The position numbers and the translations under genes are program-made. A DNA stretch of 38,370 nt from Actinomycetes bacterium (GTDB lineage: Bacteria > Actinomycetota > Actinomycetes > Actinomycetales > BWSM-131): positions 1 to 38,370 of the forward strand of contig JBKHWX010000121.1 in assembly GCA_046566325.1 (NCBI GenBank). Direction: 5' to 3'. Below are positions 3,295 through 33,594 of the stretch, piece after piece. The notes under the pieces were generated by a model, which did not search any database, was not told the DNA's origin, and was given only the letters and a program-made list of their open reading frames with translations. Numbering within the stretch: the first letter of the stretch is position 1; the number at the start of each line of letters is the position of its first letter.

Positions 3295-4164
3295 ATGCGC
3301 GGAATCATCCTGGCCGGCGGGTCCGGCACCCGGCTGCACCCGATCACCCAGGGCGTGAGCAAGCAGCTGGTCCCGGTCTACGACAAGCCGATGGTCTACT
3401 ACCCGCTGTCGACACTGATGCTGGCCGGCATCTCGGACGTGCTCGTGATCACGACGCCCCACGACGCGGAGCAGTTCGAGCGGCTGCTCGGGAACGGCTC
3501 CCAGTTCGGCATCTCGGTCACCTACGCCCAACAGCCACGGCCGGAGGGCCTGGCACAGGCGTTCGTGATCGGCGCCGACTTCCTCGGCTCGGACGCCGCC
3601 GCCCTCGTGCTCGGGGACAACATCTTCTACGGGCCGACCCTCGGCAGCCAGCTCGGCCGGTTCAGCGAGCTCGACGGAGGAGTGGTCTTCGCCTACTGGG
3701 TGGCTGAGCCGACCACGTACGGCGTGGTGGAGTTCGACGACCAGGGACGCGCGCTGTCGCTGGAGGAGAAGCCGGCCGACCCCAAGAGCAACTACGCCGT
3801 GCCGGGCCTGTACTTCTACAGCAACGACGTCGTCGACATCGCCAGGGACCTCAAGCCCTCAGCGCGCGGGGAGCTGGAGATCACCGACGTCAACCGCATC
3901 TACCTGGAGCAGGGGCGGCTGCAGGTGAACGTGCTCCCCCGCGGGACCGCCTGGCTCGACACCGGCACCTTCGACTCCCTGCTCGACGCCGGCAACTTCG
4001 TCTCCACCCTGGAGGCTCGGCAGGGCCTGAAGATCGGCTGCCCCGAGGAGGTCGCCTGGCGGCGTGGCTGGCTGGACGACGAGGGGTTGCGCGAGCGGGC
4101 GGAGAGCCTGCGCAAGAGCGGCTACGGCGGCTACCTGCTCGAGCTGCTGCAGCGGGGCCGCTGA
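3295..4164 (+). CDS. rfbA: Glucose-1-phosphate thymidylyltransferase
   Basis: [41 protein letters not shown]. Confidence 0.97.
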
Positions 4165-5092: not shown

Positions 5093-5707
5093 TTGGAGAT
5101 CCGGGAGCTGTCCGTACCAGGCGCCTACGAGGTGACGCCGAAGCAGTTCGGGGACGCCCGAGGCGTCTTCCTCGAGTGGTTCCGCAGCGACCATCTCGCC
5201 GACGTGATCGGTCACGAGATGCAGGTACGTCAGACGAACTGCTCGGTGTCCGCAGCGGGGGTCGTCCGGGGCATCCACTTCGCCGACGTCCCACCCAGCC
5301 AGGCGAAGTACGTGACCTGCTTCACCGGGGCGGTGCTGGACGTCGTCATCGACATCCGCGTCGGCTCACCCACGTTCGGGGAGTGGGACAGCGTCCTGCT
5401 GGACGACGTCGACCGGCGGGCGGTGTACGTCTCGGAGGGCCTCGGCCACGCGTTCATGTCGCTGCAGGACGGGTCCGCCGTCGCCTACCTCTGCTCGACC
5501 CCGTACTCGCCCACCCGCGAGCACGGGGTGCACCCCCTCGACCCGGAGGTGGGCGTCGACTGGCCGACGCAGGACCGGACCGGCCGCCCGATCGAGCCCC
5601 TGCTGTCCGAGAAGGACGGCCAGGCCCCGTCGCTGGCGCAGGCCCGCGAGCAGGGCCTGCTCCCGACGTTGGACGACGCCCGGCGGTTCGTCGACTCCCT
5701 GCGGTGA
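5093..5707 (+). CDS. rfbC: dTDP-4-dehydrorhamnose 3,5-epimerase (RmlC)
   Basis: DARGVFLEWF, GVVRGIHF, QAKYVTC, DIRVGSPTFG, GLGHAF. TTG start with GGGAG upstream. Confidence 0.95.
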   Translation: MEIRELSVPGAYEVTPKQFGDARGVFLEWFRSDHLADVIGHEMQVRQTNCSVSAAGVVRGIHFADVPPSQAKYVTCFTGAVLDVVIDIRVGSPTFGEWDSVLLDDVDRRAVYVSEGLGHAFMSLQDGSAVAYLCSTPYSPTREHGVHPLDPEVGVDWPTQDRTGRPIEPLLSEKDGQAPSLAQAREQGLLPTLDDARRFVDSLR

Positions 5708-6471
5708 CCACGCCCCCGTCGTCCACCGACCCGCCCGAACCAGGCAGCCCAGAGACGGGCAGCCCAGGCACCGGCAGCCCAGACGTCCCCAGCCCAGACA
5801 TCGGCAACCCGGACACCGCCGTCGTCATCCCCGTCTACAACGAGGCCACCGTGATCGCGTCGGTCGTCGAGGGTGTCCTGCGCCACGTCGACAAGGTGGT
5901 GTGCGTCGACGACGGCAGCTCGGACGGGTCCGCGGACGAGATCGCGAAGACCCGGGCCCACCTCGTCCGCCACCCCGTGAACCTCGGCCAGGGCGCCGCG
6001 CTGCAGACCGGTCTCGAGTACGCGCTCCTCGACCCCGCCGTCCGCTACTTCGTCACCTACGACGCGGACGGCCAGCACCGGATGGAGGACGTGCTCACGA
6101 TGCTGGACGTGGCCCGCCAGCAGCACGTGGACGTCGTCTTCGGGTCGCGCTTCCTCGGCGGCCGCAGCGAGGTCGGCGGGGTCAAGCGAGTCGTGCTGAA
6201 GCTGGCGGTCGCCTACATGAACGCGTCGTCCGGGATCCGGCTCACCGACGCCCACAACGGGCTCCGCGTGCTCACGCGGCCCGTCGTGGAGCGGCTGGAC
6301 CTGCGGCAGAACGGCATGGCGCACGCCAGCGAGCTGGTGAACAAGGTCAGCAAGGGGGGGTACTCCTTCGCGGAGGTGCCCGTGCACATCCTCTACACCG
6401 ACTACTCCAAGGGGAAAGGTCAGTCCCTGCTCAACTCCGTGAACATCCTGTTCGACATGCTGTTCCGCTGA
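5704..6471 (+). CDS. GT2 polyprenol-phosphate glycosyltransferase (DPM1/PpgS-like)
   Basis: VVIPVYNE, VDDGSSD, NLGQGAALQTG, DADGQH, TDAHNGLR, YTDYSKGKGQS. GTG start overlaps the rmlC stop. Confidence 0.9.
   Translation: MTTPPSSTDPPEPGSPETGSPGTGSPDVPSPDIGNPDTAVVIPVYNEATVIASVVEGVLRHVDKVVCVDDGSSDGSADEIAKTRAHLVRHPVNLGQGAALQTGLEYALLDPAVRYFVTYDADGQHRMEDVLTMLDVARQQHVDVVFGSRFLGGRSEVGGVKRVVLKLAVAYMNASSGIRLTDAHNGLRVLTRPVVERLDLRQNGMAHASELVNKVSKGGYSFAEVPVHILYTDYSKGKGQSLLNSVNILFDMLFR
5743..5817 (+). repeat. Five degenerate 15-bp tandem units encoding GSPET/GSPGT/GSPDV/PSPDI/GNPDT
   Basis: ggcagcccagagacg, ggcagcccaggcacc, ggcagcccagacgtc, cccagcccagacatc, ggcaacccggacacc. Confidence 0.85.
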
Positions 6472-6480
6472 GGGGGAGCC

Positions 6481-6834
6481 GTGCTGATCCAGATCCTGCT
6501 CGTCGCCGCGATCGCCGTCGTCGTCGTGTCCTTCCTCCACAACCGGAACGCCATGCGCTTCCAGGCCGGCAAGAAGCTGCTGTTCGCCCTGTTCGTGCTC
6601 GCCTGCCTCGTGGCCGTGGTCTACCCCGAGGGCATGACCGCCGTGGCCCACCTCGTGGGGGTCGGCCGTGGGGCCGACCTGATCCTCTACGGCCTGGTCG
6701 TGGCCTTCGTGTTCGTCTCCCTCAACACGTACCTGAAGTTCCGGGACTACGAGGCCCGGCTGACGGCGATCGCCCGCCGGCTGGCGATCGCAGAGGCCCG
6801 CGCCCAGCACCGCGACGGGCAGCCGTGGCACTGA
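6481..6834 (+). CDS. DUF2304 family membrane protein (Rv3632-like GT partner)
   Basis: 117 aa with three hydrophobic segments and GVGRGADLILY. Directly follows the PpgS-like GT2. Confidence 0.9.
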   Translation: MLIQILLVAAIAVVVVSFLHNRNAMRFQAGKKLLFALFVLACLVAVVYPEGMTAVAHLVGVGRGADLILYGLVVAFVFVSLNTYLKFRDYEARLTAIARRLAIAEARAQHRDGQPWH

Positions 6835-8210
6835 GGTCCTCGTCGAACCCCTTCCCCGACCACGACCCGTCGCCGCACGCGGCTCCCTCACCCGAGCGCG
6901 TCCCGGCCCCTGCCCTCCTGCGTCTCCCCCGTGCGGTCCTCGGCGGCCTGCCACGCGGCACCCTCGACGTGGGCGTCGGGCTCGCCGTCCTCGGCGTGGC
7001 CGCGTACGTCTACCTCGCCGTCGCTGGGCGGGCGCTCGGCCCCGAGCGCTTCGCGGCGCTCTCCGTCGTGTGGGTCCTCGTCTTCACCGTGGGTCCCGGC
7101 CTCTTCGTCCCGCTCGAGCAGGAGATCGGCAGGGCGGTGGCCGAACGGCGGGCTCGACACGTGGGCGGTCTCCCGGTCCTGCGGACGGCGGCTCTGCTCG
7201 GCGCCGTCTTCGCCGTCGGCGTCCTCGTCCTGCTCGCGGCCGCGTCGCCCGTGATCGTTCCCGCCCTGTTCCGGGGCAACGGCGTCCTGCTCGTGATGAC
7301 CGGGCTCGCCGTGGTCTCGCTCGCGGTGGCCTACCCCAGCCGGGGCGCGCTGGCCGGGTCCGGACGGTTCCGCCGGTACGGGGCGCAGCTCAGCGTCGAA
7401 GGCGCGCTGCGGGTCGCGGTGGCAGTCGGCCTGTGGGTCGCGGGTGTCCGCTCCACCGGCGCGTTCGCGCTGGCGCTCGCGCTGCCGGCGCTCGTCGCCG
7501 CCCTCGTCACCGTCCCACCGCCGCGCCGTCTCCTGGACGACGGCCCCCACGCCAGCGTGCACGAGCTGTCCGGACGGATCGGCCTGCTGCTGGGCATCTC
7601 GCTGATGACGAACTCGCTCGTGAACGCGGGCCCCGTGCTGGTGCAGGCGCTGGCGTCCCCGTCGGAGAAGGCCGCGGCAGGGGTCTTCCTGGCGGCCCTG
7701 ATCGTGGCGAGGGTGCCGCTGTTCCTGTTCTCCGCGGTCCAGGCCGTGATGCTCCCCCGCCTGGCGTCGCTGGCGGCGGTGGGCGCCGCTCACGACTTCA
7801 CCCGCCTGCTCTACCGGGTGCTGCTGCTCGTCGGCTCGATCGGAGCGGTCGGCGTCCTCGGCTGCCTGACGGTCGGCCCGGAGGTCATCGTCGTCTTCTT
7901 CGGCGGCGACTTCGCGTTCCCGCGCACGGACCTGGTGCTGCTGGCAGTTGCCAGCGCCGCCTACATGGTGGGGGTGGCGCTCACCCAGGTGCTCGTGGCG
8001 CTCGATCAGCACCATCGCGCGCTGCTGGCCTGGGTCGTCGGCGTCGTCGTGCTGGTCTTGCTCACGCTCGTGCTGCACGACCTGCTGCTGCGGGTGGAGC
8101 TGGGCTTCCTGTTCGGCAGCACGAGCGCCGTCCTCGCCCTCGCTATCCTCCTGCGAACCCCGATGGCCGCTCTTCGAGGACGGCACCAGCCAGCGGACGG
8201 AACCTCGTGA
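6825..8210 (+). CDS. Polysaccharide biosynthesis membrane protein, Wzx/MATE-like flippase (start uncertain)
   Basis: About 12 hydrophobic segments; LAVAGRALGPERF, PLEQEIGR, ARVPLFLF. Confidence 0.8.
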   Translation: MALRSSSNPFPDHDPSPHAAPSPERVPAPALLRLPRAVLGGLPRGTLDVGVGLAVLGVAAYVYLAVAGRALGPERFAALSVVWVLVFTVGPGLFVPLEQEIGRAVAERRARHVGGLPVLRTAALLGAVFAVGVLVLLAAASPVIVPALFRGNGVLLVMTGLAVVSLAVAYPSRGALAGSGRFRRYGAQLSVEGALRVAVAVGLWVAGVRSTGAFALALALPALVAALVTVPPPRRLLDDGPHASVHELSGRIGLLLGISLMTNSLVNAGPVLVQALASPSEKAAAGVFLAALIVARVPLFLFSAVQAVMLPRLASLAAVGAAHDFTRLLYRVLLLVGSIGAVGVLGCLTVGPEVIVVFFGGDFAFPRTDLVLLAVASAAYMVGVALTQVLVALDQHHRALLAWVVGVVVLVLLTLVLHDLLLRVELGFLFGSTSAVLALAILLRTPMAALRGRHQPADGTS

Positions 8211-9052
8211 AGCTCACCGTGCTCATGACCGTCTACGACGGCGCGGAGCCGGACCAGCTGCGACGTGCGCTCGAGAGCGTGGTCCGGCAGACCCGGGTGC
8301 CGGACGAGATCCTCGTCGTGGAGGACGGGCCCCTGCGTCCGGCGTTGCGGGAGGTGCTCGCGCGCTTCCAGGACGACCGTCGGGACGTCGTCCGCCTGCT
8401 GCCGCTCCCCGAGAACGTCGGCGGCGGCGCGGCCTCCGACGTGGGCCTTCGGGCGGCGACGTGGGACGTCGTCGCGAAGATGGACGCGGACGACGTGGCC
8501 ATGCCGACGCGGTTCGAGACCCAGCTGAGGCTGCTCGAGGAGCAGGGGCTCGACGTGGTCGGGTCGAGCATGCTGGAGTTCGAAGGCGCCGAGAGCAACG
8601 TCGTGGGGCTGCGCCGTCCCCCTCTCTCCCACCAGGAGATCGCGCGGTACGCCCGCCTGCACAACCCGCTCAACCATCCCACCGTGATGATGCGACGGGA
8701 CGCGGCCCTGCGGGCCGGCGGGTACGTCGAGATCAAGTACGTCGAGGACTACGACCTGTGGGCCCGGATGCTCGCGTCGGGAGCGAGGTTCGGCAACGTC
8801 GCCGAGCCGTTGCTGCTCTTCCGGACGTCGTCCGCGATGTACCGGCGCCGTGCCGGCGTGGCGCTCCTGCGGTCGGAGTGGGTGCTGCAGCGTCGGCTGC
8901 AGGAGCTCGGGCTCGTCAGCGGCTGGCAGCGGGCACGGAACCTCGTGCTCCGGTGCACCTTCCGGCTGCTGCCCACCGGCCTGCTGCGGCTCGCGTACGC
9001 CCGGCTGCTCCGGGCGCGGAGGGCGTCAGACGCTGCGGCTGGGCTCCGGTGA
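8207..9052 (+). CDS. Glycosyltransferase family 2 (AmsE-like)
   Basis: LTVLMTVY, VVEDGPL, AKMDADD, NHPTVMMRR, EDYDLW. Confidence 0.9.
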   Translation: MKLTVLMTVYDGAEPDQLRRALESVVRQTRVPDEILVVEDGPLRPALREVLARFQDDRRDVVRLLPLPENVGGGAASDVGLRAATWDVVAKMDADDVAMPTRFETQLRLLEEQGLDVVGSSMLEFEGAESNVVGLRRPPLSHQEIARYARLHNPLNHPTVMMRRDAALRAGGYVEIKYVEDYDLWARMLASGARFGNVAEPLLLFRTSSAMYRRRAGVALLRSEWVLQRRLQELGLVSGWQRARNLVLRCTFRLLPTGLLRLAYARLLRARRASDAAAGLR

Positions 9053-9997
9053 CGGCTGAGCGTCGGGTGACGCCTGAGCCTGAGGTGACGGATGGGCCTC
9101 GCGTGACGGATGGGCCTTCGCTGAGGGCTGAGCCTTCGCTGACGGCTCGGCCTGGGCGGACAAGTGGCGGCGCGCCGGACGCTGCCTCCGCAACCGTCCG
9201 AACGCCTGACCGATCGCGTGCTGTCCCGTGGCGAGGCCCATCCGCGCCCTGACGATGTACGGGACGAGCCGGCTCGGGATACGGAACGAGATGGCCGTCG
9301 TCCCCGCCGGCCAGACCCGCACGACCTCCTGCTCCGCCACGGTCTGCCGCTCGTGCTCGAGCCCGCTGGTCGGCAGCCAGGCATCCAGCGCCTCCCGCCA
9401 GGGACCCGGGTCACCCCAGGTCGCGTACAGCTTGTGCGACGTGGTCACGAGCACATGGAGACCGCCCGCCACCTCCCCCCACACGACCGCCGCCACCCCG
9501 GGCGTGTGCTCGCTGCGGTAGTCGTCGAAGACGACCACTCCGTCGGGGGCGAGCAGCGTGCGAGCGGCCTCGACGTCACCGACGACGTGCTCGTACAGGT
9601 GGGAGGCGTCGATATGGACGAACCGGTGCGTCCCATGGCTGGCAGAAGCGGTGATCTGCGAGCTCGGCGCCCTCACGACGACCGGGAGCTCGCCGTGGAT
9701 GCGCCGGTAGTTCTGCTCGAACCGCTCCTGCGACAGGCCTGGGTACTGCCCGGTGTTCTCGTCGGCGTTCTCGTCGTCGCCCGGGTTCGCGCCGAACAGG
9801 TCGATGACGGTGAAGGTCTCGCCCGGACGCACGTAGGCACCGATGAGGGCCGCGCTCTTGCCGAGGTAGGCGCCCAGCTCGGCGACATCGCCTCCGAGGT
9901 CTCGGGCGGACAGGAAGAAGCGGAAGAGGGCCTTGTCCGTGCCCGTGAACCAGCCCTCGATCCCGTCGATCTCGCTGTCGGTGACGTCCCGCCGCAT
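9026..9997 (-). CDS. Class I SAM-dependent methyltransferase (Methyltransf_24-like)
   Basis: IEGWF, ELGAYLGKS (motif I), FVHIDASHLY, GVVVFDDY. Start set at MRRDVTD. Confidence 0.88.
   Translation of the reverse strand: MRRDVTDSEIDGIEGWFTGTDKALFRFFLSARDLGGDVAELGAYLGKSAALIGAYVRPGETFTVIDLFGANPGDDENADENTGQYPGLSQERFEQNYRRIHGELPVVVRAPSSQITASASHGTHRFVHIDASHLYEHVVGDVEAARTLLAPDGVVVFDDYRSEHTPGVAAVVWGEVAGGLHVLVTTSHKLYATWGDPGPWREALDAWLPTSGLEHERQTVAEQEVVRVWPAGTTAISFRIPSRLVPYIVRARMGLATGQHAIGQAFGRLRRQRPARRHLSAQAEPSAKAQPSAKAHPSREAHPSPQAQASPDAQPSPEPSRSV
9050..9157. repeat. Six degenerate 18-bp tandem units
   Basis: Units tgacggctgagcgtcggg, tgacgcctgagcctgagg, tgacggatgggcctcgcg, tgacggatgggccttcgc, tgagggctgagccttcgc, tgacggctcggcctgggc. 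They encode the S-x-x-A-x-P tail of the methyltransferase. Confidence 0.85.
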
Positions 9998-10101
9998 GCC
10001 GCGCATCCTCCCACAGCGGTGAACCGCGGCTGTCAGAGGACGACGGCCGCTCGCCGGGCGTGCTGCCCGGGAGCGGTCGTCGTCCTCGATGAGCGTCGAC
10101 G

Positions 10102-11493
10102 TCAGCGTGCCTGCGTGGTCGACACCCAGACGGCGCCGTCGGTGCCGCGCACGAACACAGCCATCTTCTTGTCGAGCCGGCCGACGAGGGCAGGTCCCGC
10201 GTCGGTCTGGCCGCCGGCGTCGGACCAGCCCAGCCAGCCTGCCGAGTAGCCGCGCCGCTTGACCCTGCGGTCCTTGCCCACGCTGGCGACCTCCAGCATG
10301 TTCGTGGCGGGAGCGGCGATCGCGGGGTCGGAGGTGCTCTGGCCGCCCAGGTTCAGCCAGGGCGTCCACGTGGTCCGCAGAGAGCGGTGCCATACGCCTC
10401 CGTCCGTCCCGGTCACCACGAGGTCGATCCGCCCCGGCCCGTCGGAGGTCACGGAAGGCGCCGAAGCCAGCCCACCGCCGAGAGACTTCCATCCGCTCCA
10501 GCTGCCGCCGGAGTACGAGCGCTGCCACAGCGCCTTGTCGGTGCCTCGGACGAACACGTCCATGCCGCCCGGCTTCGCCGACACCGCCGCGGGGGCGGAG
10601 TCCAGCGTGCCGCCGAGACTCTCCCAGGCACTCCACGTCTTCCCGGTCCGGGTCCGGTGCCAGAGGGCGTTGTCGGTGCCGCGGACGAAGACGTCGACGC
10701 GATCCTTCGCCGGCGAGGCCACAGCGGGGCTCAGGTCCGTCGTCCCGCCGAGACCCTCCCAGGGTGACCAGCTGCCGCTGAAGCTCCGCGAGTACAGAGC
10801 TCGGTCGGTCCCGACCGTGACGACCTCCATGCCGTCCGACGGCGTGGAGAGGGCCGCGGGGCGGCCGATGATCCCGCCTCCGAGGGACTGCCAGGCGCTG
10901 TACTGGAGGGTGTACCAGGACGTCTCTCCCCGGGCCCCCGCCCAGGACATAGAGATGTGGACGTGGTTGCGGTGGCAGATGTTGTCGTCGACCGGGCTCG
11001 TCCGGACCGACACGCAGTCGCTGTACTCCCGCCAGCCGGCGGCGGTGTTGTACAGGGAGAAGATGCGGCTGTCCCAGATGACGTACTGGATGCCGAGCCG
11101 GCGCGCCATCGCGTGGTGGTTGCCGTACTCATCGTCCCGCAGCAGCCACTCGAGGAACGACTCGGCGGTCGCGCGCTGGTCGGGCACCCGCGAGTTGGTC
11201 ATCCAGTCGATGGCCCGGCCTTCCTCGTGCCCGCTGTTGCTTGCGGTGCACGCTCGGGAGATGTTGCTGGTGATCGACGTGCCGTAGGTCGCCTTGAGCA
11301 GCCGGACCAGCGCCTCCGCCCCTGGCTTCGGTGTCGGGTCGCAGCCGGACTCCGCCTCGTACCGGGAGTAGGCGTCGATGCTGCGCGGAAACGGCGGTGC
11401 GGAGGGTGCGACCGCGGACGCCGGAGAGGCGACGCCGAGGACGGTGCCGAGAAGGGCCAAGGGAACGAGAAGGCGCAAGAACGAGAGGTTCAT
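10102..11493 (-). CDS. Secreted protein: putative Zn-peptidase (DD-peptidase/M15-like fold) plus six PLL-like beta-propeller repeats
   Basis: Signal peptide ending ASA. HEEGRAID and HRNHVHIS motifs. Six W-x-x-W-x-x-LGG...P-A-V...D-V-F-V-R-G-T-D-x-A-L-W repeats. Confidence 0.8.
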   Translation of the reverse strand: MNLSFLRLLVPLALLGTVLGVASPASAVAPSAPPFPRSIDAYSRYEAESGCDPTPKPGAEALVRLLKATYGTSITSNISRACTASNSGHEEGRAIDWMTNSRVPDQRATAESFLEWLLRDDEYGNHHAMARRLGIQYVIWDSRIFSLYNTAAGWREYSDCVSVRTSPVDDNICHRNHVHISMSWAGARGETSWYTLQYSAWQSLGGGIIGRPAALSTPSDGMEVVTVGTDRALYSRSFSGSWSPWEGLGGTTDLSPAVASPAKDRVDVFVRGTDNALWHRTRTGKTWSAWESLGGTLDSAPAAVSAKPGGMDVFVRGTDKALWQRSYSGGSWSGWKSLGGGLASAPSVTSDGPGRIDLVVTGTDGGVWHRSLRTTWTPWLNLGGQSTSDPAIAAPATNMLEVASVGKDRRVKRRGYSAGWLGWSDAGGQTDAGPALVGRLDKKMAVFVRGTDGAVWVSTTQAR

Positions 11494-11535
11494 GAGACGT
11501 GACCACGCAATCGGTAGGCGGCGTTCCCTTACGGG

Positions 11536-11562
11536 ATCGGCCTGCCGGCCTGATCACTTGAG
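11536..11562 (-). promoter_or_regulatory. Putative FliA/sigma28-type promoter CTCAAG-N15-GCCGAT
   Basis: Minus strand ctcaag tgatcaggccggcag gccgat, about 43 nt upstream of the start at 11493. Same spacing as the copies at 15664 and 17375. Confidence 0.65.
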
Positions 11563-11632
11563 GTGAGGAATGTTCACCTCTCTGTAGCCGGGGGCGGACG
11601 GCGCGCCGCTCGGCGTCCTGCGCGTCGTCTCG

Positions 11633-13384
11633 TCAGCGCCCGGGGCTGGTGAACAGAGCGCACGTGGGGGTCGTGCCGGACGCGCGCCACCCGGCTCGGG
11701 TCAGGAGCTCGTCAGCGGCGTCCTCCGTCTCGACGCAGGCCACGGCCACGTCGAGCTCGGACAGTGCCCGCAGCACCGCTGCATCCTCGCCGTCCATGCG
11801 GTCCCCGTCGGCGAAGCGCTCGAGCAGAAGCCGGTCGTCGAGGTGCCCGCCGGGTACGGAGCGGAGTGCGGCCATGTAGTCGCCCCTGCTGACGACGGGG
11901 TGCACGCGGGCGGAGACAAGGCTCACCGCGAACGAGGTGCTCGTGGGAGCCAGGACCGGATGCGACGCGCCGTCAGAGGTGGCCACGCTCACGACCTGCC
12001 GTGCCGCCTCCAGGTCAGGTTCGGGAACCTTCCACCGGGGAAGGGTGATGGCCGCTCCCGCGTTCTTCGGCGACCACAGCGGGAGCCCGGTCCCTACCAG
12101 GGCGCCCACGGCGAGGACGGCGACGAGGCCCCGCCACGCAGGCGATGACCGTGCGCTCGCCAGGAGCGACACCGCGGCGCCGACCAGCGCGGGGAGCGGC
12201 GCCACCCATGCCAGCCGCCACAGGATCAGGCCGGCACCGGTGGCGGCGTCGATCGTGTGCAGGGTGGCGGGTGCCAGGACGGCGCAGGTGCCGAGCACGC
12301 TGAGGAGCGCGACCGCGCGGCCCACGCCCCGCGCGCCCAGCCAGCCGAGCGCCAGCCCGACCACCGCGGGGACGACGACGGCGCCGCTTCCGAGCACAGA
12401 GGCGACGACCTGCATGCTTCCCGGCGCGGACACGTCAGGCAGTGGGGGCGCCCCGGGGACCGACACGGAGACGAGCGCCGTCGTGACGGGGTAGACCGCG
12501 ACGGCTGCCGCTCCGGCCGCAGCTCGCAGATCTCGTCTCAGCACCGCTACCACTCCGAGGACGCACGCGACCACCGGCACCACGAAGAACGCGGAGGTGG
12601 TGAGTCCCACACCTGCGACTGACGCCCCCGTCATCAAGATCAGACTGCGCCGGGACCGGCTCCGCAGCCAGTCCGTACCCACCGCGTACAGGTACGGAAC
12701 GACGACCGCGACGAACAGGACCTTCCCCTGCCAGATCCGCCCCACGTGCAGGTTGCCGAAGGACGCATGGTCGGCACCGCCCCACAGGATGAACACGAGC
12801 GCCGCGACCAGCGCGAGCGAGGGCGCGGACACCCGCCACGACACGAGCAGCCGGTGCAGCGCGAGGACGGCGACGGCGGCCCCGACGGGAGTCGCGACCA
12901 GGTAGACGACCGTCCCCGCCTCGAGACCCGCGGCGCGAGCCACGGCACCGAGCAGGGTCTCCCAGGAGGTGACCGGGGGATAGCCGCTCGCAACCGGGGG
13001 GTAGACACCGGCCGAGAAGACCGTGTCGCGGGTGGGGATGAGCCCCAGCTGCCGGACCGCTACCGAGCGGCCCACGTAGACGATGTCGTCGGCGTCCGGC
13101 CGGGTGAGCAGCAGCGAGAAGACGGCCATCGCACAGGCCAGGCCGACCGGCACGTAGCGACCGGCGCTCCGCCGTCCCCGGGAAGGCACGGACGGCCGGC
13201 CGCGGGTCAGCCAGACGACCACGCCGGCCGACAGGGCAACCCACACGAGGGCCACCGCGAGCAGCGGCATGCTCAGCAGCAGCCCGAGGTGGTACGCCAG
13301 CGTCCATGCGGCCAGCAGACCCAGGGCGAGGTCGACGAGGAGGTCCAGACGGCCGGCCGGCGGCGCGGCGGCGCGTGCTCCCAT
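11633..13384 (-). CDS. Polytopic membrane protein, DUF6077-like, probable GT-C glycosyltransferase
   Basis: Many hydrophobic segments, an acidic PDADDIVY loop, and GNLHVGRIWQGKVLF. ATG 13384 has a GAGGGG RBS. Confidence 0.75.
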   Translation of the reverse strand: MGARAAAPPAGRLDLLVDLALGLLAAWTLAYHLGLLLSMPLLAVALVWVALSAGVVVWLTRGRPSVPSRGRRSAGRYVPVGLACAMAVFSLLLTRPDADDIVYVGRSVAVRQLGLIPTRDTVFSAGVYPPVASGYPPVTSWETLLGAVARAAGLEAGTVVYLVATPVGAAVAVLALHRLLVSWRVSAPSLALVAALVFILWGGADHASFGNLHVGRIWQGKVLFVAVVVPYLYAVGTDWLRSRSRRSLILMTGASVAGVGLTTSAFFVVPVVACVLGVVAVLRRDLRAAAGAAAVAVYPVTTALVSVSVPGAPPLPDVSAPGSMQVVASVLGSGAVVVPAVVGLALGWLGARGVGRAVALLSVLGTCAVLAPATLHTIDAATGAGLILWRLAWVAPLPALVGAAVSLLASARSSPAWRGLVAVLAVGALVGTGLPLWSPKNAGAAITLPRWKVPEPDLEAARQVVSVATSDGASHPVLAPTSTSFAVSLVSARVHPVVSRGDYMAALRSVPGGHLDDRLLLERFADGDRMDGEDAAVLRALSELDVAVACVETEDAADELLTRAGWRASGTTPTCALFTSPGR

Positions 13385-13535
13385 GCGACCCCCTCTGCCA
13401 CCGCCCGTGCCGGCCCGACGGTATCCGCCGACCTCCGGGCACGACGAAGGGCGGGCCTCCGCGGCTGCTGTTCGCGCCGGGAGGCCCGCCCTGGTGGAGC
13501 TCTGCCGTCTGCTGGCGGGAAGGCCCGCAGCAGAC

Positions 13536-15548
13536 CTACTGCGACTGTCCGGACAGGAGCCAGACGGCGCCGTCCGTACCGCGCGCCGCGAGACTGATGC
13601 TCCCGTCTCCCGCACTGGCGAGGGCCGGGCCCTCGGACGTCGTGCCGCCGACGTCCGACCAGGACTGCCAGCCGACCGAGTAGGCGCGCCTCTTGACGTG
13701 GCGGTCGGTCCCCGTGGTCGCGATCTCGAGGGTGTCGGCGGCCGGAGCGGTGACCGCCGCGTCGCTCCCGGTGTCGCCACCCAGGCCGAGCCACGGCGTC
13801 CAGCTACCCCGCAGCGAGCGGTGCCAGACCGCCCGGTCGGAGCCGACGGCGACGACGTCCACACGGCCCTCGCCGTCGGAGGTGGCGGCCGGCCCCGACG
13901 TCAGCGCGCCGCCGAGAGACGACCACGAGGACCACGTCCCGTTGTCGTAGGCCCGGTGCCAGAGCGCCTTGTCGGTCCCCTGCACGAGCACGTCGATCCG
14001 GCCGGGACGCGACGAGACGGCCGCCGGCGAGGACGCGAGGGTGCCTCCGAGGCTCCGCCACGCGGACCAGGCACCGTTCTCGTAGGTGCGCTGCCACAGC
14101 GCGCGGTCCTGACCACGGACGAAGACGTCCCGTCGGTCGCTTCCCCAGCTCGAGACGGCCGGGCTGAGGTCGGTCGCTCCTCCGAGCGACTGCCACGAGG
14201 ACCAGGAGCTGCTCTTCGACTTCAGGTACACCGCCTTGTCCGAACCGACGGCGACGACGTCCAGACGACCCGGTGCGGGAGCCACCGCGGCAGGACGTCC
14301 GAGGATGGCGCCGCCGAGGGACTGCCAGGTGGAGTACTTCACGGCCCGCGGGACCGGCTTCGCGGCCGCCGGTGGCTGCGACGTCCCCTGCAGCTGCTGC
14401 ACCGTCGTCCGGATGGCCGGCAGCTGTGAGTACAGGTTGTTCCCGGGGCACTCGGTGAGGCCCACGTCCCGGTGACCGAAGATGACCGGAAGGGTCACGC
14501 GCTGACCCACCGCGTACCTCGCGGTCCCGCCGCCCGCGCTGGTGAGCGTGACGGAGCCGGTCGGGCTGACCCCGTACATCCCCAGCTTCCAGGCGGCGAC
14601 GCGCGAGATCGCGTTGACCATCGCCGGCGGAGCCGACGTCGTGGAGTAGTTGCCGAGTGCGGAGATGCCGGCCGTGCTCGCGTTGAAGCCACCGGCGTGC
14701 GCGCCCTGGACCGCCTTGTCGACGCCCCCGGCACGGCCCTCGTAGATGTTCCCCCACTTGTCGACCACGAAGTTGTAGCCCAGGTCGCACCACCCCAGGA
14801 CCTTGGTGTGGTACGCGTAGTCCGCCCGCAGCTGGGCCATGGCCTGAGCCTGGGTGGAGTAGGAGTTGCCACCGGCGGTGTGGTGCACGGTGATGCCCTT
14901 GACGGACGACATGTACGTGACCGAGTTGCACTTCAAGCGCTCGTCCGCGCCCCACTGAGCGCGGCTGATGATGGCGGGACGGGCAGCGGCAGCGCCAGCC
15001 GTCGCGAGAGGTTGAGCGCTCGCACCGGCGGAGGTGCCCGGGTCCACGAGCCGCACGTCGAGCTGGTCGGGCAGCTGGCCGGCCTGCGGGCGGACCCGCA
15101 CCTGCACCTGGTCGCTGTCCCCTACCCAGAGCGGCTCGGTCGCGGTCGTGATCGCAGAACCGGCGTCCGGCGCGCCGGGATCAGGAGCGCTGTCGAGCGT
15201 GGAGAGCTTCTGCCAGGCCTGCCAGCGGCCACCTGTGGCCACGCGCACCTCGACGCTCGGGGTGCGGTCCTTGCCCGTCCACGTGGCGCCCACCATCGAG
15301 AAGTTGCGGACGGCGATCGGCGCGGACTCCAGCGTCCCCTGCCCCGCCTCCGCGTTCGGCTGAGCAGAGACGCCGCTGGACGGCGCGGCCGCGGCCTTGA
15401 CGCCCTGGAGGCCGTCGAGACGGACGGAGACGGTCTGCAGCTCGGGAGACACCGGCTGCGGCGAGTCCGCCCAGACCGGCCCGATGACGGGTGCTGCGAC
15501 CAGCAGAGCGGCCGTCCCGACCGCCGTGATCACGGAATGAACCTTCAT
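13536..15548 (-). CDS. Secreted N-acetylmuramoyl-L-alanine amidase (Amidase_2/PGRP-like) plus six PLL-like repeats
   Basis: Signal peptide, IISRAQWGA, TVHHTAG, GWCDLGYNF, GAHAGGFN, GHRDVGLTECPG, then the propeller repeats. ATG 15548 has a GAGG RBS. Confidence 0.9.
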   Translation of the reverse strand: MKVHSVITAVGTAALLVAAPVIGPVWADSPQPVSPELQTVSVRLDGLQGVKAAAAPSSGVSAQPNAEAGQGTLESAPIAVRNFSMVGATWTGKDRTPSVEVRVATGGRWQAWQKLSTLDSAPDPGAPDAGSAITTATEPLWVGDSDQVQVRVRPQAGQLPDQLDVRLVDPGTSAGASAQPLATAGAAAARPAIISRAQWGADERLKCNSVTYMSSVKGITVHHTAGGNSYSTQAQAMAQLRADYAYHTKVLGWCDLGYNFVVDKWGNIYEGRAGGVDKAVQGAHAGGFNASTAGISALGNYSTTSAPPAMVNAISRVAAWKLGMYGVSPTGSVTLTSAGGGTARYAVGQRVTLPVIFGHRDVGLTECPGNNLYSQLPAIRTTVQQLQGTSQPPAAAKPVPRAVKYSTWQSLGGAILGRPAAVAPAPGRLDVVAVGSDKAVYLKSKSSSWSSWQSLGGATDLSPAVSSWGSDRRDVFVRGQDRALWQRTYENGAWSAWRSLGGTLASSPAAVSSRPGRIDVLVQGTDKALWHRAYDNGTWSSWSSLGGALTSGPAATSDGEGRVDVVAVGSDRAVWHRSLRGSWTPWLGLGGDTGSDAAVTAPAADTLEIATTGTDRHVKRRAYSVGWQSWSDVGGTTSEGPALASAGDGSISLAARGTDGAVWLLSGQSQ

Positions 15549-15663
15549 GTCAACCTCGTCGACCTCGACATCTCGGACAGCGCGAGGAGTCCTGGGACCT
15601 CCACCACCGGAGTCACCACCGCAGTCGGTTCCGGTGCGGGGTCCGCCATCGCACGAGAGAGTC

Positions 15664-15690
15664 GTCGGCCGAAAAGGGCCGGCACTTGAG
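15664..15690 (-). promoter_or_regulatory. Putative FliA/sigma28-type promoter CTCAAG-N15-GCCGAC
   Basis: Minus strand ctcaag tgccggcccttttcg gccgac, upstream of the amidase. Confidence 0.6.
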
Positions 15691-15920
15691 CCGATCGGAG
15701 GACGCCTTCGCGTGCGGGTCGTGACGGCGTTCCACGGATCGGGCCCAGGTGCGGGTCGCGAGGAGCCGCAACGAGGACGTTCCGCATCCGCCCTCGGGGC
15801 TCTCAGGTCGCTCACGAGGCTCGGCGGCCGAGCGGCGAGCTCGGTGTCGACGAGGTGTCTGGCGGGAGCGCCTCGTGCGCCTAGTGATCACAAGGGCCGC
15901 GGAGGCCGTAGTCTCCTGCG

Positions 15921-17261
15921 GTGCTGCCTACAGGGCCGAGAGCCGCGCGCGGACCGGCGTGGGTGCGCTGGACCGTCGTAGCCCTGGTCGTGGGCGTGCT
16001 CGCCCTGGGAGCGGTGGCCCGCTACCTCCCGATCCAGCAGTCCTTGTCCAGGGCGGACGAGTACGTGTTCATCGATGCGCTCGACAAGGCGTCACGAGGC
16101 GACGTGGTGGAGCAGGGAGAGCACCTCGACCCCTACACGCTGACGCTGCTGCAGTGCCGGGGCATCTCCGACTTCGGCCCCGTCGGCCCCCCCTGCGGCC
16201 AGCCGTTCCCGCTCTCGAAGGCTCCCTTCGGGGGGGTCACCTCGGCGGACGCCTACACGCCCACCTACTTCTTCCTCACGGCCTGGCTCGCGAAGGGCCT
16301 GCTGCTCACGCCCTTCGTCCAGGACCTGCTGGTCGCCGGACGGCTCGTCGACGGCCTGTGGCTGTGGGCGGGGCTGATGGCGACGATCGCCCTCGCGCGA
16401 TCCCTCGGGGCGTCAGGAGCGGCGTCCGTCGCCGTCGCGCTGCTGATGCTCACCGCACCTGCGACACGGTGGACGAACACGTACCTCACCCCGGACTCCA
16501 TGTCGATCCTGCTCGGCGCGGTCGCCGCACTCGCCGCCGTGAAGGTCTCCCGCCGGCAGTGGCCCGTGTGGGCCATGGTGCCGGTCGCGGCGCTGGCGAC
16601 GGCGGTCAAGGTGACCAACATCGTGGTCCTGGGAGCGGTGGTCGCCTTCCTGGTGCTCAAAGCGCTCCCGAGGCCGACCGCGCAGGTCGCCGGGGAGCCG
16701 AGGACACGAGAGCTCGCCCGGTCCCTGGTCGCCGCCGGCGTCGTCATGGGCACGACGCTCGCAACCGAGCTCGCCTGGCTGTGGGTCCGGTCCCGCCTGG
16801 CCGTCGGACCACCGCCGGAACAGAACCTCCAGCCGTTCCCGCTCACGCCGCACAACGCGGGGTCGACGATGGTGCGGTTCATGCGCGGCATCGTCGTCGG
16901 GCCCGACAGCGTCAACCACCTGGGAGACATCGCCTCGTTCCGGGGCGAGGTCATCTCCTGGCTCCTCGTCTCCGGTGTCGTGGCGGCCGCCCTCTTCGGT
17001 TACCGGCGCCGCGAAGACGTCGTGCACCTCGGCCGGGCGACGATGTTGACGCTGGTCACCGCGGGGCCGGGTCTCCTCGTGCTGCTGCTCGCCGCTCAGG
17101 TGCCGGTGTTCGACCTGCCCGAGCGATATGCGAGCTCGGCGCTGCCCCTGATGGGGGCGGTCACAGCAGCACTCGTCAAAGACCGGTGGGTGGCCCTCGC
17201 CGTCCTGGCCTTCGCCGTGGTCGTCTACGTCCACCTCGTGGTCTTCGCCGGAACCTGGTGA
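15921..17261 (+). CDS. Polytopic membrane protein, probable GT-C (PMT-like) glycosyltransferase
   Basis: N-terminal TM followed by a DE motif (SRADEYVF), YTPTYF, TPDS, AVKVT and a C-terminal PERY. About 10 hydrophobic segments. Confidence 0.7.
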   Translation: MLPTGPRAARGPAWVRWTVVALVVGVLALGAVARYLPIQQSLSRADEYVFIDALDKASRGDVVEQGEHLDPYTLTLLQCRGISDFGPVGPPCGQPFPLSKAPFGGVTSADAYTPTYFFLTAWLAKGLLLTPFVQDLLVAGRLVDGLWLWAGLMATIALARSLGASGAASVAVALLMLTAPATRWTNTYLTPDSMSILLGAVAALAAVKVSRRQWPVWAMVPVAALATAVKVTNIVVLGAVVAFLVLKALPRPTAQVAGEPRTRELARSLVAAGVVMGTTLATELAWLWVRSRLAVGPPPEQNLQPFPLTPHNAGSTMVRFMRGIVVGPDSVNHLGDIASFRGEVISWLLVSGVVAAALFGYRRREDVVHLGRATMLTLVTAGPGLLVLLLAAQVPVFDLPERYASSALPLMGAVTAALVKDRWVALAVLAFAVVVYVHLVVFAGTW

Positions 17262-17401: not shown

Positions 17402-17581
17402 TCAGTTGGTCAGGCACCTCGCTTCCGACTGGTGCCGAGCAGGCTCCAGTCGAGAGGCGCTCCGTACGTGGCCACTCCCTTCCGCACAACCCCCGGGCGA
17501 CGCTCGGCGGGCACCGGTCCCAGCCGCGCCCCAGCCGGGGCAGTCGCTCTCCGAGCCCTTCCCGGCGCCTACGGCAAAGCA

Positions 17582-19840
17582 GTGCGAGGACTGCTGACGC
17601 TCACCCTCGCCCTCGCTCCCGTGGTGGCGGTCTTCACCCCGCAGGCGGCGCAGGCGCTGACCGGAAGCGAGTTCGACCCCGGGAACATCATCACGGACAC
17701 GGTCTTCTTCGACTCGGGAACCATGACGGCCGAGCAGGTGCAGGCCTTTCTCGACAGCAAGGGCTCGCACTGCCGGTCGGGCAGCGTCCCCTGCCTGAAG
17801 GACTACCGGCAGACCACGTCGGACAGGCCGGCGGAGGCGAAGCTCTGCCAGGGCTACACCGGCCGACCCGACGAGTCGGCGGCGCAGATCATCGTCAGGG
17901 TGGCGGACAGCTGCGGCATCAACCCTCGCGTCCTGATCGTCCTGCTGCAGAAGGAGCAGGGCCTCGTCAGCAGCACGCAGCCGACCGCCGCCAAGTACAA
18001 CACCGCGACGGGCTACGGCTGCCCGGACTTCGCGGTCTGCGACACGCAGTACTACGGGTTCTTCAACCAGGTCTACTCGGCGGCTCGCCGGTTTCGGAGC
18101 TACGGCGTGAGCCCCGGCTTCAGGTACCAAGCCGGACGGACCAACCTCATCCAGTACAACCCCAACGTCTCCTGCGGCAGCAAGTCCGTCTACATCGAGA
18201 ACCGGGCGACGGCCGCCCTGTACAACTACACGCCGTACGTGCCGAACGAGGCCGCGCTGAACTTCCTCTACGGGACGGGTGACGACTGCAGCGCCTACGG
18301 CAACCGCAACTTCTGGCGCTTCTTCACCGAGTGGTTCGGATCGACCCAGGCGGGCAGCTTCCTCGTCCGCAGCGAGAACAACCCGACCGTCTACCTGCTG
18401 GTGGACGACGCCAAGTACCCCGTCCCGAGCCTGGCCCTGCTGTCGGCGCTCGACCGACTGGGACCCGTCGGGGTCGTCTCCCAGAAGTTCCTCGACGCGA
18501 GGGCCACCGGCCCGACGATGGGCCGGCTGGTCCGGTCCACGAACGGGACGATCTACTTCGTCGACGCCGGGATCAAGCTGTACGTCCCGACCTGCCAGAT
18601 GGCCGCCGACTACGGGTACTCCTGCTCGCAGACGACGCTCCTGCCGGACGCCCAGCTCGCGTTGCTGAAGACCGGCCCGTCGCTGACCTCGGTGTTCGAG
18701 ACCACGAGCGGCAAGCGGTTCTTCGTCCAGGGCGCGGCGAAGCGCGAGGTGTACGACGCTCAGTCGCTAGCGTCGGCCGGCGTTCCGGCCACGTCGGTCC
18801 GGCTGCTCGAGAGCGCCCTGGACCACCTCCCGTACGGAACTCCCGTGATCCGGGACGGCGTCGTGGCTCGAAGCCGCGCCACCGGCGCGCTGACCCTGCA
18901 CCAGGGCGGACGAGGCAGCGCGGTCGGTGCAGCCCTGCTGAGCCAGACGCCGCTCGGCGCCCTGGTGCCGGAGGAGCCGCTCGACCAGCAGAGCATCGAC
19001 CGGCTGGCGGACGCCGGGACGCTGACGGGCCTCGTGCAGTCGGCGGACGGCGCACGGGCCTACGCGCTCACGGCGACGGGCAAGATGCGCCTGGCCGAGC
19101 CGGGCCAGTGGTCGGGAAGGTTGACGGCCCTGCCCGACTCCCTGCTGGCACAGATCCCGGACGAGGGCACCATCGCGCCGTCCTCGTTCGTGAAGTCCTC
19201 CACGAAGGCGGACGTCTACCTGGTGCTGGACGGCGAGAAGCGGTACGTCCGCACGTGGGGCGACCTCACGACGTTGAGCGGGGGCGCCGCGCCGCAGATC
19301 TCGACGCTGCCCGACGAGGTGCTGGGCGGCCTCCCCTCCGGAGGACCGGTCCTCGCGCCCGGCACACTGGTGTACGCACCCGGCTCGCCGGCGGTGTCGC
19401 TGGTCGACGGCCTGCGCCGCCGCATCCCGGTCACGAGCTTCAGCGTCGTGGACGAGACCGGCGCCGGAGCCCTGGTGCAGGTGGACGCGTCGACGATGTC
19501 GAAGTACACCCCCTCCGCTCGTCCGATGTCCGTCGCGGTGTCGTGCAACGGCCACACCTACCTCGGCGTCTTCGGCGTCCTGAGGCGCATCCCGGACGCG
19601 CTGCTGGGCGACTACCGCCTCACCCCGGTCACGCTCGACCCGCTGACGTGCTCCGCGCTGCGCCCGTCCGAGCAGGCGCTCGGCCGCTTCCTGCGCACTC
19701 CGGACGGCACCATCTACTACGTGGCGAACGGCGGCAAGCGCTGGCTGACCTCGTACGCGGAGTACGTGCGGCTCGGCGGCACCGCCGCGAACACGACGGC
19801 GGTCTCCCCGCTGGTGGCGTCCGCCGTCCCGACCCTGTGA
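17582..19840 (+). CDS. Secreted protein: putative lysozyme-like wall hydrolase domain plus about 9 C-terminal repeats
   Basis: Signal peptide ending AQA. FDPGNIITD, GINPRVLIVLLQKEQGL, GYGCPD, YGFFNQV, ATAALYNYTPY. C-terminal repeats resemble (G)RLVRS-x-x-GT(I/V)Y(F/L)V-x-x-G-x-K. Start GTG 17582 is inferred. Confidence 0.75.
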   Translation: MRGLLTLTLALAPVVAVFTPQAAQALTGSEFDPGNIITDTVFFDSGTMTAEQVQAFLDSKGSHCRSGSVPCLKDYRQTTSDRPAEAKLCQGYTGRPDESAAQIIVRVADSCGINPRVLIVLLQKEQGLVSSTQPTAAKYNTATGYGCPDFAVCDTQYYGFFNQVYSAARRFRSYGVSPGFRYQAGRTNLIQYNPNVSCGSKSVYIENRATAALYNYTPYVPNEAALNFLYGTGDDCSAYGNRNFWRFFTEWFGSTQAGSFLVRSENNPTVYLLVDDAKYPVPSLALLSALDRLGPVGVVSQKFLDARATGPTMGRLVRSTNGTIYFVDAGIKLYVPTCQMAADYGYSCSQTTLLPDAQLALLKTGPSLTSVFETTSGKRFFVQGAAKREVYDAQSLASAGVPATSVRLLESALDHLPYGTPVIRDGVVARSRATGALTLHQGGRGSAVGAALLSQTPLGALVPEEPLDQQSIDRLADAGTLTGLVQSADGARAYALTATGKMRLAEPGQWSGRLTALPDSLLAQIPDEGTIAPSSFVKSSTKADVYLVLDGEKRYVRTWGDLTTLSGGAAPQISTLPDEVLGGLPSGGPVLAPGTLVYAPGSPAVSLVDGLRRRIPVTSFSVVDETGAGALVQVDASTMSKYTPSARPMSVAVSCNGHTYLGVFGVLRRIPDALLGDYRLTPVTLDPLTCSALRPSEQALGRFLRTPDGTIYYVANGGKRWLTSYAEYVRLGGTAANTTAVSPLVASAVPTL

Positions 19841-23248: not shown

Positions 23249-23269
23249 CGTGCTGAGCGGGCTGTCGCG

Positions 23270-27603: not shown

Positions 27604-27698
27604 TGTCGCCGGCGCTCCACGCTCCCGCGGTTCTTCGGGGCCATTCCCAAACCCACCGATCATACTGTCCGAGATGTCCGACGCGAGCCAGGAGATGC

Positions 27699-33524: not shown

Positions 33525-33594
33525 AACTGACCAGTATCCGCGATCCCGGAAGGCCGCCGTGCCAGCGGCCGGCGGCGTGTCTAGCGTCGGGACT

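Follow-up and report, generated by a model that had tools for sequence, protein, structure and literature searches.

SLH domains with their pyruvylated polymer, CWB2 domains with PSII and the choline-binding repeats are modules that anchor proteins to a wall polymer. In these systems one module is found on several wall proteins of a genome and is aimed at a polymer other than peptidoglycan. EpaU of Enterococcus faecalis is an autolysin that is encoded in the EPA rhamnopolysaccharide cluster and binds EPA (PMC13343894). The PLL-type lectins of Photorhabdus (PLL, PLL2-5 and PHL; DUF346, or PropLec7A of UniLectin) are free-standing proteins, and the family has so far been described as seven-bladed. 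According to PMC12203525 they bind alpha-L-fucosides and 3,6-Me2-Glc-beta1,4-(2,3-Me2)-L-Rha with apparent affinities in the nM to uM range, binding depends in part on the O-methyl group, and glycan arrays with 634 epitopes gave only fucosylated and O-methylated ligands. The DNA analysed here, below called the window, is contig C121 of the source genome G000, 38,370 bp with about 72% GC. On its minus strand lie the genes of two peptidoglycan hydrolases, P0001 and P0002, with different catalytic domains but with the same PLL-type propeller as their C-terminal tail; the organism is a high-GC actinobacterium. We give a probability of roughly 0.5 to the reading that both are autolysins and that, through the duplicated six-bladed tail, they are directed to the rhamnose-containing glycan in the wall of their own producer. 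The two genes belong to a block with the following features:

9026-~10006, minus: S-adenosylmethionine-dependent methyltransferase of family Methyltransf_24 (PF13578, E 1.3e-15; GC at third codon positions, GC3); last gene of the block, start codon approximate
10102-11493, minus: P0001, 463 aa, putatively secreted LAS-type zinc peptidase with PLL-type propeller (open reading frame, ORF, and translation; precomputed PF26571 and PF26607)
10909-11412, minus: predicted catalytic domain of P0001, residues 28-195 (AlphaFold2, Foldseek, invariant motifs)
10105-10908, minus: predicted six-repeat PLL-type propeller of P0001, residues 196-463 (phmmer against PDB, AlphaFold2, Foldseek)
11633-~13384, minus: DUF6077 polytopic membrane protein, ~583 aa (PF19554, E 4.7e-11; 12 transmembrane-like segments by hydropathy)
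13536-15548, minus: P0002, 670 aa, putatively secreted Rv3811-type N-acetylmuramoyl-L-alanine amidase with PLL-type propeller (precomputed PF27503, PF01510 and PF26607)
14439-14906, minus: Amidase_2 domain of P0002, residues 215-370 (Pfam E 1e-17)
13539-14342, minus: predicted six-repeat PLL-type propeller of P0002, residues 403-670 (59% identity to the P0001 tail; PLL3, E 3e-74)

Genes were called from codon-position GC, frame-specific GC3, the listing of ORFs and Pfam scans, and the GC3 frame signal and the ORFs agree on four co-oriented genes at 9026-15548, with intergenic gaps of about 95-150 bp. The assignments PF26607, PF26571 and PF27503 (named Rv3811_N) are from precomputed domain annotation. 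The G000 assembly is 2.88 Mb in 309 contigs and 68% complete.

The tails of P0001 and P0002 align over 268 residues without a gap, with 59% identity (E 3e-98), and both are built from six repeats, 44-45 residues long. An earlier reading of this DNA (the original prediction) had seen one six-repeat propeller on two different catalytic domains and named it a PLL-family lectin, and both observations are confirmed, the second as true homology. In phmmer searches against the PDB the P0001 tail matched PLL2 (6rfz, E 3e-87) and the P0002 tail PLL3 (6t96, E 3e-74), and every solved PLL-family lectin was matched by both tails with E-values from 1e-56 to 3e-87. The tails and the lectins have the repeat signature W-x-x-W...GG and G-[ST]-D-x-A-L-W in common. 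The Pfam scan itself gave only a sub-threshold match to DUF346. PF26607 is precomputed for both tails, and we take it to be the name for the PLL family.

The AlphaFold2 model of the P0001 tail (pLDDT 92.4, pTM 0.90) has 23 strands, and the top Foldseek matches to it are PLL3, PHL and PLL2 (E 1e-19). Among the fold matches are the complex of PHL with L-rhamnose (6rgr) and those of PLL2 with 3-O-methyl-glucose and with the O-methylated PGL-1 disaccharide. The six-bladed AAL-type fucose lectins rank next, with TM-scores that are equal or higher (0.78-0.81). This comparison with PLL- and AAL-type lectins had been proposed as a check of the lectin assignment, which it supports. By their sequences both tails belong to the PLL family, and by the predicted model they have its propeller fold. 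The seven blades of the family were not found in either protein, and the repeat count together with the predicted model makes the tails six-bladed members of it.

The hydrophobic (H) site of PLL3 is formed by S246, W251 and W265 (PMC12203525). Counted along the alignment with PLL3, these are the Ser of G-S-D, the Trp of A-L-W and the second Trp of W-x-x-W. In P0001 the Ser or Thr and the two Trp are all present at four of the six junctions between repeats (2-3, 3-4, 4-5 and 6-1), and in P0002 the triad is complete at three of six, junction 2-3 having Gln in place of Ser or Thr. The blade-by-blade pattern is the same in the two proteins, which implies that the domain was duplicated as a whole.

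P0001 starts with a hydrophobic stretch that ends in ASA-VA and is probably a signal peptide. The domain that follows, residues 28-195, was modelled by AlphaFold2 from 30 homologues with a pLDDT of 96.4, and all five significant Foldseek matches to it were to the C-terminal catalytic domain of VldE (probability 1.0, target TM-scores 0.70-0.76). Hedgehog N-domains, the Streptomyces Zn DD-peptidase, LdcB and MepA came after VldE as weak matches. VldE (Spr1875 of Streptococcus pneumoniae) is an L,D-endopeptidase of the LAS group, clan MD, with the zinc ligands H301, D308 and H375 and the HxH motif H373xH375 (PMC11667670). These positions are matched in P0001 by H89, D96 and H177xH179, and the motifs H89-x6-D96 and H177-V-H179 are unvaried in sets of 13 and 30 homologues. 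Pfam and NCBIfam scans gave no family for residues 28-195, which leaves the precomputed PF26571. The predicted fold and the H-x6-D and HxH motifs place P0001 with the VldE-like LAS peptidases of clan MD, so that the putative Zn-peptidase of the original prediction holds. The two proteins are also alike in being modular peptidoglycan hydrolases, but their identity is only about 22-25% over the fold alignment, and VldE has an N-terminal LysM where P0001 has a C-terminal propeller.

The proteins most similar to P0001 in the catalytic domain (57-69% identity), encoded at L020 9596-11632 and as P0088, P0094, P0104 and P0106, do not have a propeller. Their tails consist of three repeats of about 115 residues, unrecognised by Pfam, and the same type of repeat terminates the rml- or Wzm/Wzt-linked amidases of loci L181 and L135.

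P0002 has a signal-like N-terminus and the Rv3811_N domain, followed by Amidase_2 (Pfam E 1e-17), as had been foreseen. The amidase domain matches peptidoglycan recognition proteins (PGRPs) as well as phage and bacterial amidases in a sequence search of the PDB, and H222/H223, H359 and C367 are unvaried in six proteins with Amidase and PLL domains. By analogy with T7 lysozyme, these residues are presumably the zinc ligands. Judged by sequence, P0002 is an Amidase_2 enzyme of the PGRP type, similar to Rv3811. The Rv3811-type amidases of actinobacteria have the same core of Rv3811_N and Amidase_2, with 37-55% identity, but unlike P0002 most of them have other tails or tails unrecognised by Pfam. 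Among the 119 relatives listed, the position C-terminal to the amidase is taken by DUF4214 in 20, CWB2 (PF04122) in 10, FlgD_ig in 8, PLL in 5, FG-GAP in 3, and LGFP and B_lectin in one each, the rest being unrecognised by Pfam. The PLL propeller thus occupies the slot of recognised wall-binding repeats in orthologous amidases, which gives comparative support to a wall-targeting role.

A comparison within the genus points in the same direction. The genome G001 (92% complete) has no PLL match, no match to rmlC, and for rmlA only a weak match of 64 residues at a contig end. Its contig C156 starts with the same CoA-transferase gene as the window (89% DNA identity) and ends in a Wzt gene. The locus holds a UDP-sugar dehydrogenase, glycosyltransferases (GT) of family GT4, a set of GFO, DegT and hexapeptide transferase genes and a UDP-GlcNAc 2-epimerase, and from this gene content it encodes a different glycan, of amino-sugar or uronic-acid type. 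Inside the locus a LAS peptidase and a SpoIID protein are encoded next to each other (L118, C156 2025-5699), both with FG-GAP tails, and the P0002 homologue of G001 (L119, C72 2599-4620; 44% identity over the first 400 residues) is FG-GAP-tailed as well. The three tails are 255-263 residues long with 38-44% mutual identity, and no FG-GAP tail was detected in G000, which is 68% complete. The two congeners consequently differ together in the content of the glycan locus and in the tail type of the hydrolases. In each genome one binding module is used on several secreted wall proteins, with three PLL proteins in G000 and three FG-GAP hydrolases in G001.

For a broader view 400 other genomes of the class were sampled, and a PLL match with E <= 1e-15 was found in 23 of them (20 of 397 when three unpublished genomes are set aside). 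The 20 published genomes gave 24 PLL places, classified by the best-scoring frame of each locus; a PLL-matching frame of 1290 aa in L229 (G307) was left out. In 12 of the 24 the partner is a peptidoglycan hydrolase (SpoIID 4, Amidase_2 2, CHAP 2, M23 2, LAS 1, SLT 1), and in the other 12 it is NAGPA (4), GH16, M43, astacin or alpha-galactosidase (one each) or nothing recognised (4). Five of the 12 hydrolase fusions are placed in polysaccharide loci as compared to 0 of the 12 other PLL genes, which are plain counts from genomes that are not independent. In L232 an Amidase_2+PLL gene lies between rmlB-like/rmlD genes and GT4/Wzm/Wzt genes, with a related C-terminal domain in the Wzt of this locus. 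Also in this genome, in L218, a SpoIID+PLL gene lies beside GT4 genes.

Side observations were made on other PLL genes of this sample. In two unrelated genomes (L220 7234-10349 and L234 3215-6292) a membrane-protein gene of the LPG_synthase_TM family lies directly upstream of SpoIID+PLL, perhaps as a small module that is conserved. In L234 these genes are followed by GT2 and by a PMT_2 (GT-C-type) match that is weak and below threshold. Four genomes of one family (L221, L222, L226 and L228) have genes for ~750-aa proteins in which a PLL propeller at the N-terminus is joined to a NAGPA phosphodiester-glycosidase at the C-terminus, a domain that could act on phosphodiester-linked wall polymers.

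Under the reading that we favour, the propeller would bind, in a multivalent manner, to epitopes on the wall glycan that this locus makes, either 6-deoxy-L-hexose or O-methylated sugars or both, and once bound it would keep the two autolysins on the wall of their own producer or confine them spatially there. It would then have the role that is played elsewhere by the SLH, CWB2, choline-binding and EpaU wall-binding domains. The ligand would be supplied by an ABC-transporter-type pathway for a rhamnose wall glycan, for which the locus as a whole has the dTDP-L-rhamnose genes rmlA, rmlD and rmlC, eight GT genes (six of family GT2, two of GT4), a WsaF-like gene, Wzm, Wzt with Wzt_C, a second methyltransferase and LCP. 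The wall-targeting part of the argument is supported by the tail difference between the congeners, the wall-binding tails at the same position in related amidases and the recurrence of PLL-tailed hydrolases in polysaccharide loci.

Several observations weigh against this reading. The polar (P) site Trp of the lectins, at the position of W111 in PLL3, is replaced by T or S in all repeats (the residue that follows ALWH-x), so that the tails differ from the Photorhabdus lectins here as well as in repeat number. Both proteins have a Tyr in place of Trp at junction 1-2 and a degenerate junction 5-6. G000 encodes a third PLL protein, a CAP+PLL protein of 437 aa (L099, C111 8941-10254, minus strand), among housekeeping genes, between an enoyl-CoA hydratase and an HMG-CoA-lyase-like gene and outside glycan loci. 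PLL tails are also found on matrixin, tyrosinase, CAP, endoglucanase, GH16, astacin, M43 and alpha-galactosidase proteins. Conversely, the rml-linked hydrolases of L020, L181 and L190 have beta-sandwich repeat tails and not PLL, and genome G003 has an rmlA/rmlD/Wzm/Wzt locus and no PLL match. The rule that a rhamnose locus implies a PLL tail is ruled out by these four cases. The comparison of congeners is one of a single pair, in which G000 is only 68% complete.

The most direct count against it is from 80 genome loci with a PF26571 peptidase, 30 of which, in named actinomycete genomes, are PLL-tailed. Homologues of rml, Wzm, LCP, Methyltransf_24 or DUF6077 were found within 10 kb of 0 of the 30 LAS+PLL genes, and among all 80 loci only L020, which has no PLL tail, has such neighbours within this distance. 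The idea that the LAS+PLL family is generally linked to glycan loci is thereby rejected. The proposal that the propeller reads the glycan of its own locus keeps its lectin homology and its comparative support for wall targeting, and it loses the link to Methyltransf_24 and DUF6077 and any linkage of the LAS+PLL genes. The co-occurrence of PLL-tailed hydrolases with Methyltransf_24 and rml loci, proposed earlier as a check, likewise came out in part, through the five of 12 fusions in polysaccharide loci of the class sample, with no Methyltransf_24 near them.

In six of the LAS+PLL loci, distributed among Saccharothrix, Lentzea, Spirillospora, Actinomadura and Streptomyces (L015, L018, L019, L022, L033 and L056), a second gene for a PLL propeller lies a few kb away.

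It is conceivable that the propellers aim the hydrolases at foreign glycans, as lytic weapons or for foraging, and that the position in a glycan locus is incidental. The PLL lectins characterised so far have glycans of hosts and nematodes as their targets (PMC12203525), and the tyrosinase, endoglucanase, GH16, alpha-galactosidase, astacin and matrixin proteins with PLL tails are enzymes that do not act on the wall of their producer. The lack of glycan-locus neighbours for the 30 LAS+PLL genes of Streptomyces, Lentzea, Saccharothrix, Actinomadura and others points the same way. On the other hand, the genes of P0001 and P0002 are both inside the glycan locus of their own producer, such loci hold PLL-tailed peptidoglycan hydrolases in other families too, the hydrolases of the congener switch tail along with locus content, and CWB2 and LGFP are found at the same position in orthologous amidases. 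We consider a foreign target unlikely.

The propeller could also be a general wall-binding module, directed at peptidoglycan or at some widespread component, with the hydrolases encoded in the locus as remodelling accompanies the attachment of a glycan. Peptidoglycan is the ligand of many hydrolase tails, LysM, SH3b and PG_binding_1 among them, and LAS and amidase genes are paired elsewhere too (L125 and L131). A metagenome scan aimed at Amidase+PLL genes gave mostly amidases with other tails and served to show the background frequency for the amidase family. In 13 of its 80 loci (8 of the 39 that cover 10 kb or more) rml, Wzm/Wzt, WsaF or multiple GT genes are near, and the tails are of several kinds. 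Rv3811-type amidases thus occur in glycan loci whatever their tail, and it may be the enzyme, not the propeller, that is linked to them, a further point against targeting to the locus glycan. Amidase and propeller matches in one frame were found only in L122, on a contig of less than 4 kb; in L123 they are on one short contig in different frames. What makes a general ligand improbable is that the tails keep the residues with which the PLL site accommodates the 6-methyl group of fucose (PMC12203525), that the arrays of the same paper gave fucosylated and O-methylated ligands only, and that the replacement of a whole set of tails between congeners is hard to explain with an invariant peptidoglycan ligand.

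Targeting to the producer's own glycan can be carried further. Autolysin sets of Actinomycetes, made up of the Rv3811-type amidase, SpoIID and LAS enzymes, might have interchangeable tails of about 260 residues that are exchanged as a set whenever the wall-glycan locus, which is hypervariable, is replaced. Such tails, which may include the PLL propeller, the FG-GAP propeller, beta-sandwich repeats, CWB2 and LGFP, would form a glycan-matched anchoring code, in which the six-bladed PLL tail reads methyl-capped or 6-deoxyhexose (rhamnan) chains and places the hydrolases at the chain ends. The specificity of the lectin would then foretell the wall-glycan chemistry of uncultured lineages. We hold this extension to be tentative, and on the whole rather doubtful.

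In a narrower version of the favoured reading the four genes form a cassette, in which Methyltransf_24 and the DUF6077 protein, taken as GT-C-like in the original prediction, build an O-methyl-rhamnose docking epitope. The genes are co-oriented and closely spaced, and PLL lectins favour O-methylated sugars (PMC12203525). Furthermore, the SpoIID+PLL gene of L218 is flanked by two Methyltransf_11 genes, and weak class I methyltransferase matches adjoin the PLL hydrolases of L224 and L230; class I methyltransferases are common, so this adjacency is only a lead. The Methyltransf_24 gene has no sequence relative in the PDB, and an Atlas search with the DUF6077 protein returned DUF6077 clusters only. 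In 4 of 40 relatives DUF6077 is present, none of these four has PLL, and in four of its five places there it is among glycan genes without hydrolases, so that it looks like ordinary glycan-assembly machinery. Since homologues of Methyltransf_24 and DUF6077 are near none of the other PLL-tailed or related hydrolases in 184 loci (0 of 80 genome, 0 of 80 metagenome and 0 of 24 class-sample loci), and DUF6077 and PLL never share a genome among the 40 relatives, the cassette has no comparative support and is quite unlikely.

A new glycan-anchoring system, as had been proposed, is an overstatement, as the logic is that of known hydrolases anchored on wall polymers, EpaU included. Like EpaU, P0001 and P0002 are peptidoglycan hydrolases encoded in a rhamnose-polysaccharide cluster, with tails that would be directed at the product of the cluster; they differ from it in phylum, catalytic domains and binding module, and binding is demonstrated for EpaU and proposed here. 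From SLH, CWB2 and choline-binding modules the PLL tails differ by their unrelated fold, and also in that a dedicated polymer-modifying gene co-occurs with those modules, as csaB does with SLH, and neither Methyltransf_24 nor DUF6077 accompanies PLL in this way. The domain itself is not new either, since secreted enzymes of very many kinds carry PF26607 tails and DUF346 has already been equated with PLL-like lectins in UniLectin (PMC7778903). In the order, 40 other genomes were sampled and 3 have a PLL match; the proteins are C39-like, matrixin and papain-type, and their genes lie outside glycan loci. In open-access papers and preprints we found no description of a PLL-type propeller as the wall-binding domain of bacterial hydrolases. 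The use of this propeller as an anchoring module, its six-bladed form and the apparent exchange of tails as a set with the glycan locus would be new.

If the propeller does bind the glycan of the locus, Actinomycetes gain a principle for anchoring wall proteins comparable to the SLH, CWB2 and choline-binding domains of Firmicutes, and a lectin fold so far studied only in free lectins directed at insects and nematodes gets an anchoring use. The tail type of autolysins resident in such loci could then predict the wall-glycan chemistry of uncultured bacteria. If it does not, P0001 and P0002 only add two to the modular hydrolases whose lectin domain is already annotated in databases.

The remaining features of the window are these:

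upstream of rmlA (5' flank): CoA-transferase, phosphomannose isomerase and GT4 (Pfam)
3295-4164, plus: rmlA (NTP_transferase, E 3.5e-75)
4175-~5023, minus: rmlD (RmlD_sub_bind, E 3.2e-91)
5093-5707, plus: rmlC (dTDP_sugar_isom, E 1.4e-58)
5821-6471, plus: GT2 (Pfam)
6481-6834, plus: DUF2304 small membrane protein (Pfam)
~6849-8210, plus: membrane protein with 11 transmembrane (TM) segments (hydropathy)
~8210-9052, plus: GT2 (Pfam)
15921-17261 and 17432-19840: 446-aa 7-TM protein and 802-aa protein, no Pfam or NCBIfam family
20058-25458, plus: WsaF-like transferase, NAD epimerase/dehydratase, GT2, GT4 and GT2 (Pfam; NCBIfam for the epimerase)
25472-~26700, minus: Wzt ABC ATPase with Wzt_C (ABC_tran; Wzt_C, E 6.6e-19)
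26791-27663, minus: Wzm permease (ABC2_membrane)
27699-29642, minus: 647-aa protein with N-terminal class I methyltransferase domain (Methyltransf_11/12)
between the 647-aa methyltransferase and LCP: GT2 and luciferase-like oxidoreductase (Pfam)
32028-33788, minus: LCP (LytR_cpsA_psr), putative wall-polymer ligase (Pfam E 3.1e-24)
after LCP: purE/purK and GtrA (Pfam)

The block with the two hydrolases is thus surrounded by an rml/wzm/wzt/LCP locus in the map of ORFs, GC3 and Pfam domains, as the original prediction had it. NCBIfam gave no match for P0001, P0002, Methyltransf_24, DUF6077 or the three window proteins without a family, and Rfam and tRNA scans of the window gave no matches. A promoter and terminator scan of 8800-16100 gave 0 sites, which is uninformative at 72% GC in an actinobacterium.

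The second methyltransferase, the 647-aa protein, lies adjacent to Wzm and next to a Wzt that carries a carbohydrate-binding module (CBM). The window has Wzm, Wzt with Wzt_C and a protein with a methyltransferase domain side by side, which may correspond to the capped-chain pathway of WbdD and Wzt-CBM, and by this analogy the 647-aa protein, as a putative chain-end cap enzyme, is at least as good a candidate for making the epitope as Methyltransf_24. The layout suggests that export is gated by a methylated chain end. A PDB search with the protein gave generic methyltransferases only, without a sequence link to WbdD, and a relationship of the window methyltransferases to WbdD or WsaE was set aside as analogy only, the PDB sequence searches having given no link. 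About 400 further residues of the 647-aa protein are without family assignment.

The 802-aa protein has one N-terminal TM-like segment, and its structural neighbours in the Atlas (TM-scores of about 0.6) are actinobacterial clusters that carry LysM. The trio of GT2, DUF2304 and 11-TM proteins at 5821-8210, which we take to resemble the three-part extracytoplasmic glycosylation system of GtrB, a small membrane protein and a GT-C enzyme, recurs beside DUF6077, Wzm/Wzt and LCP in the relative G023 (L209).

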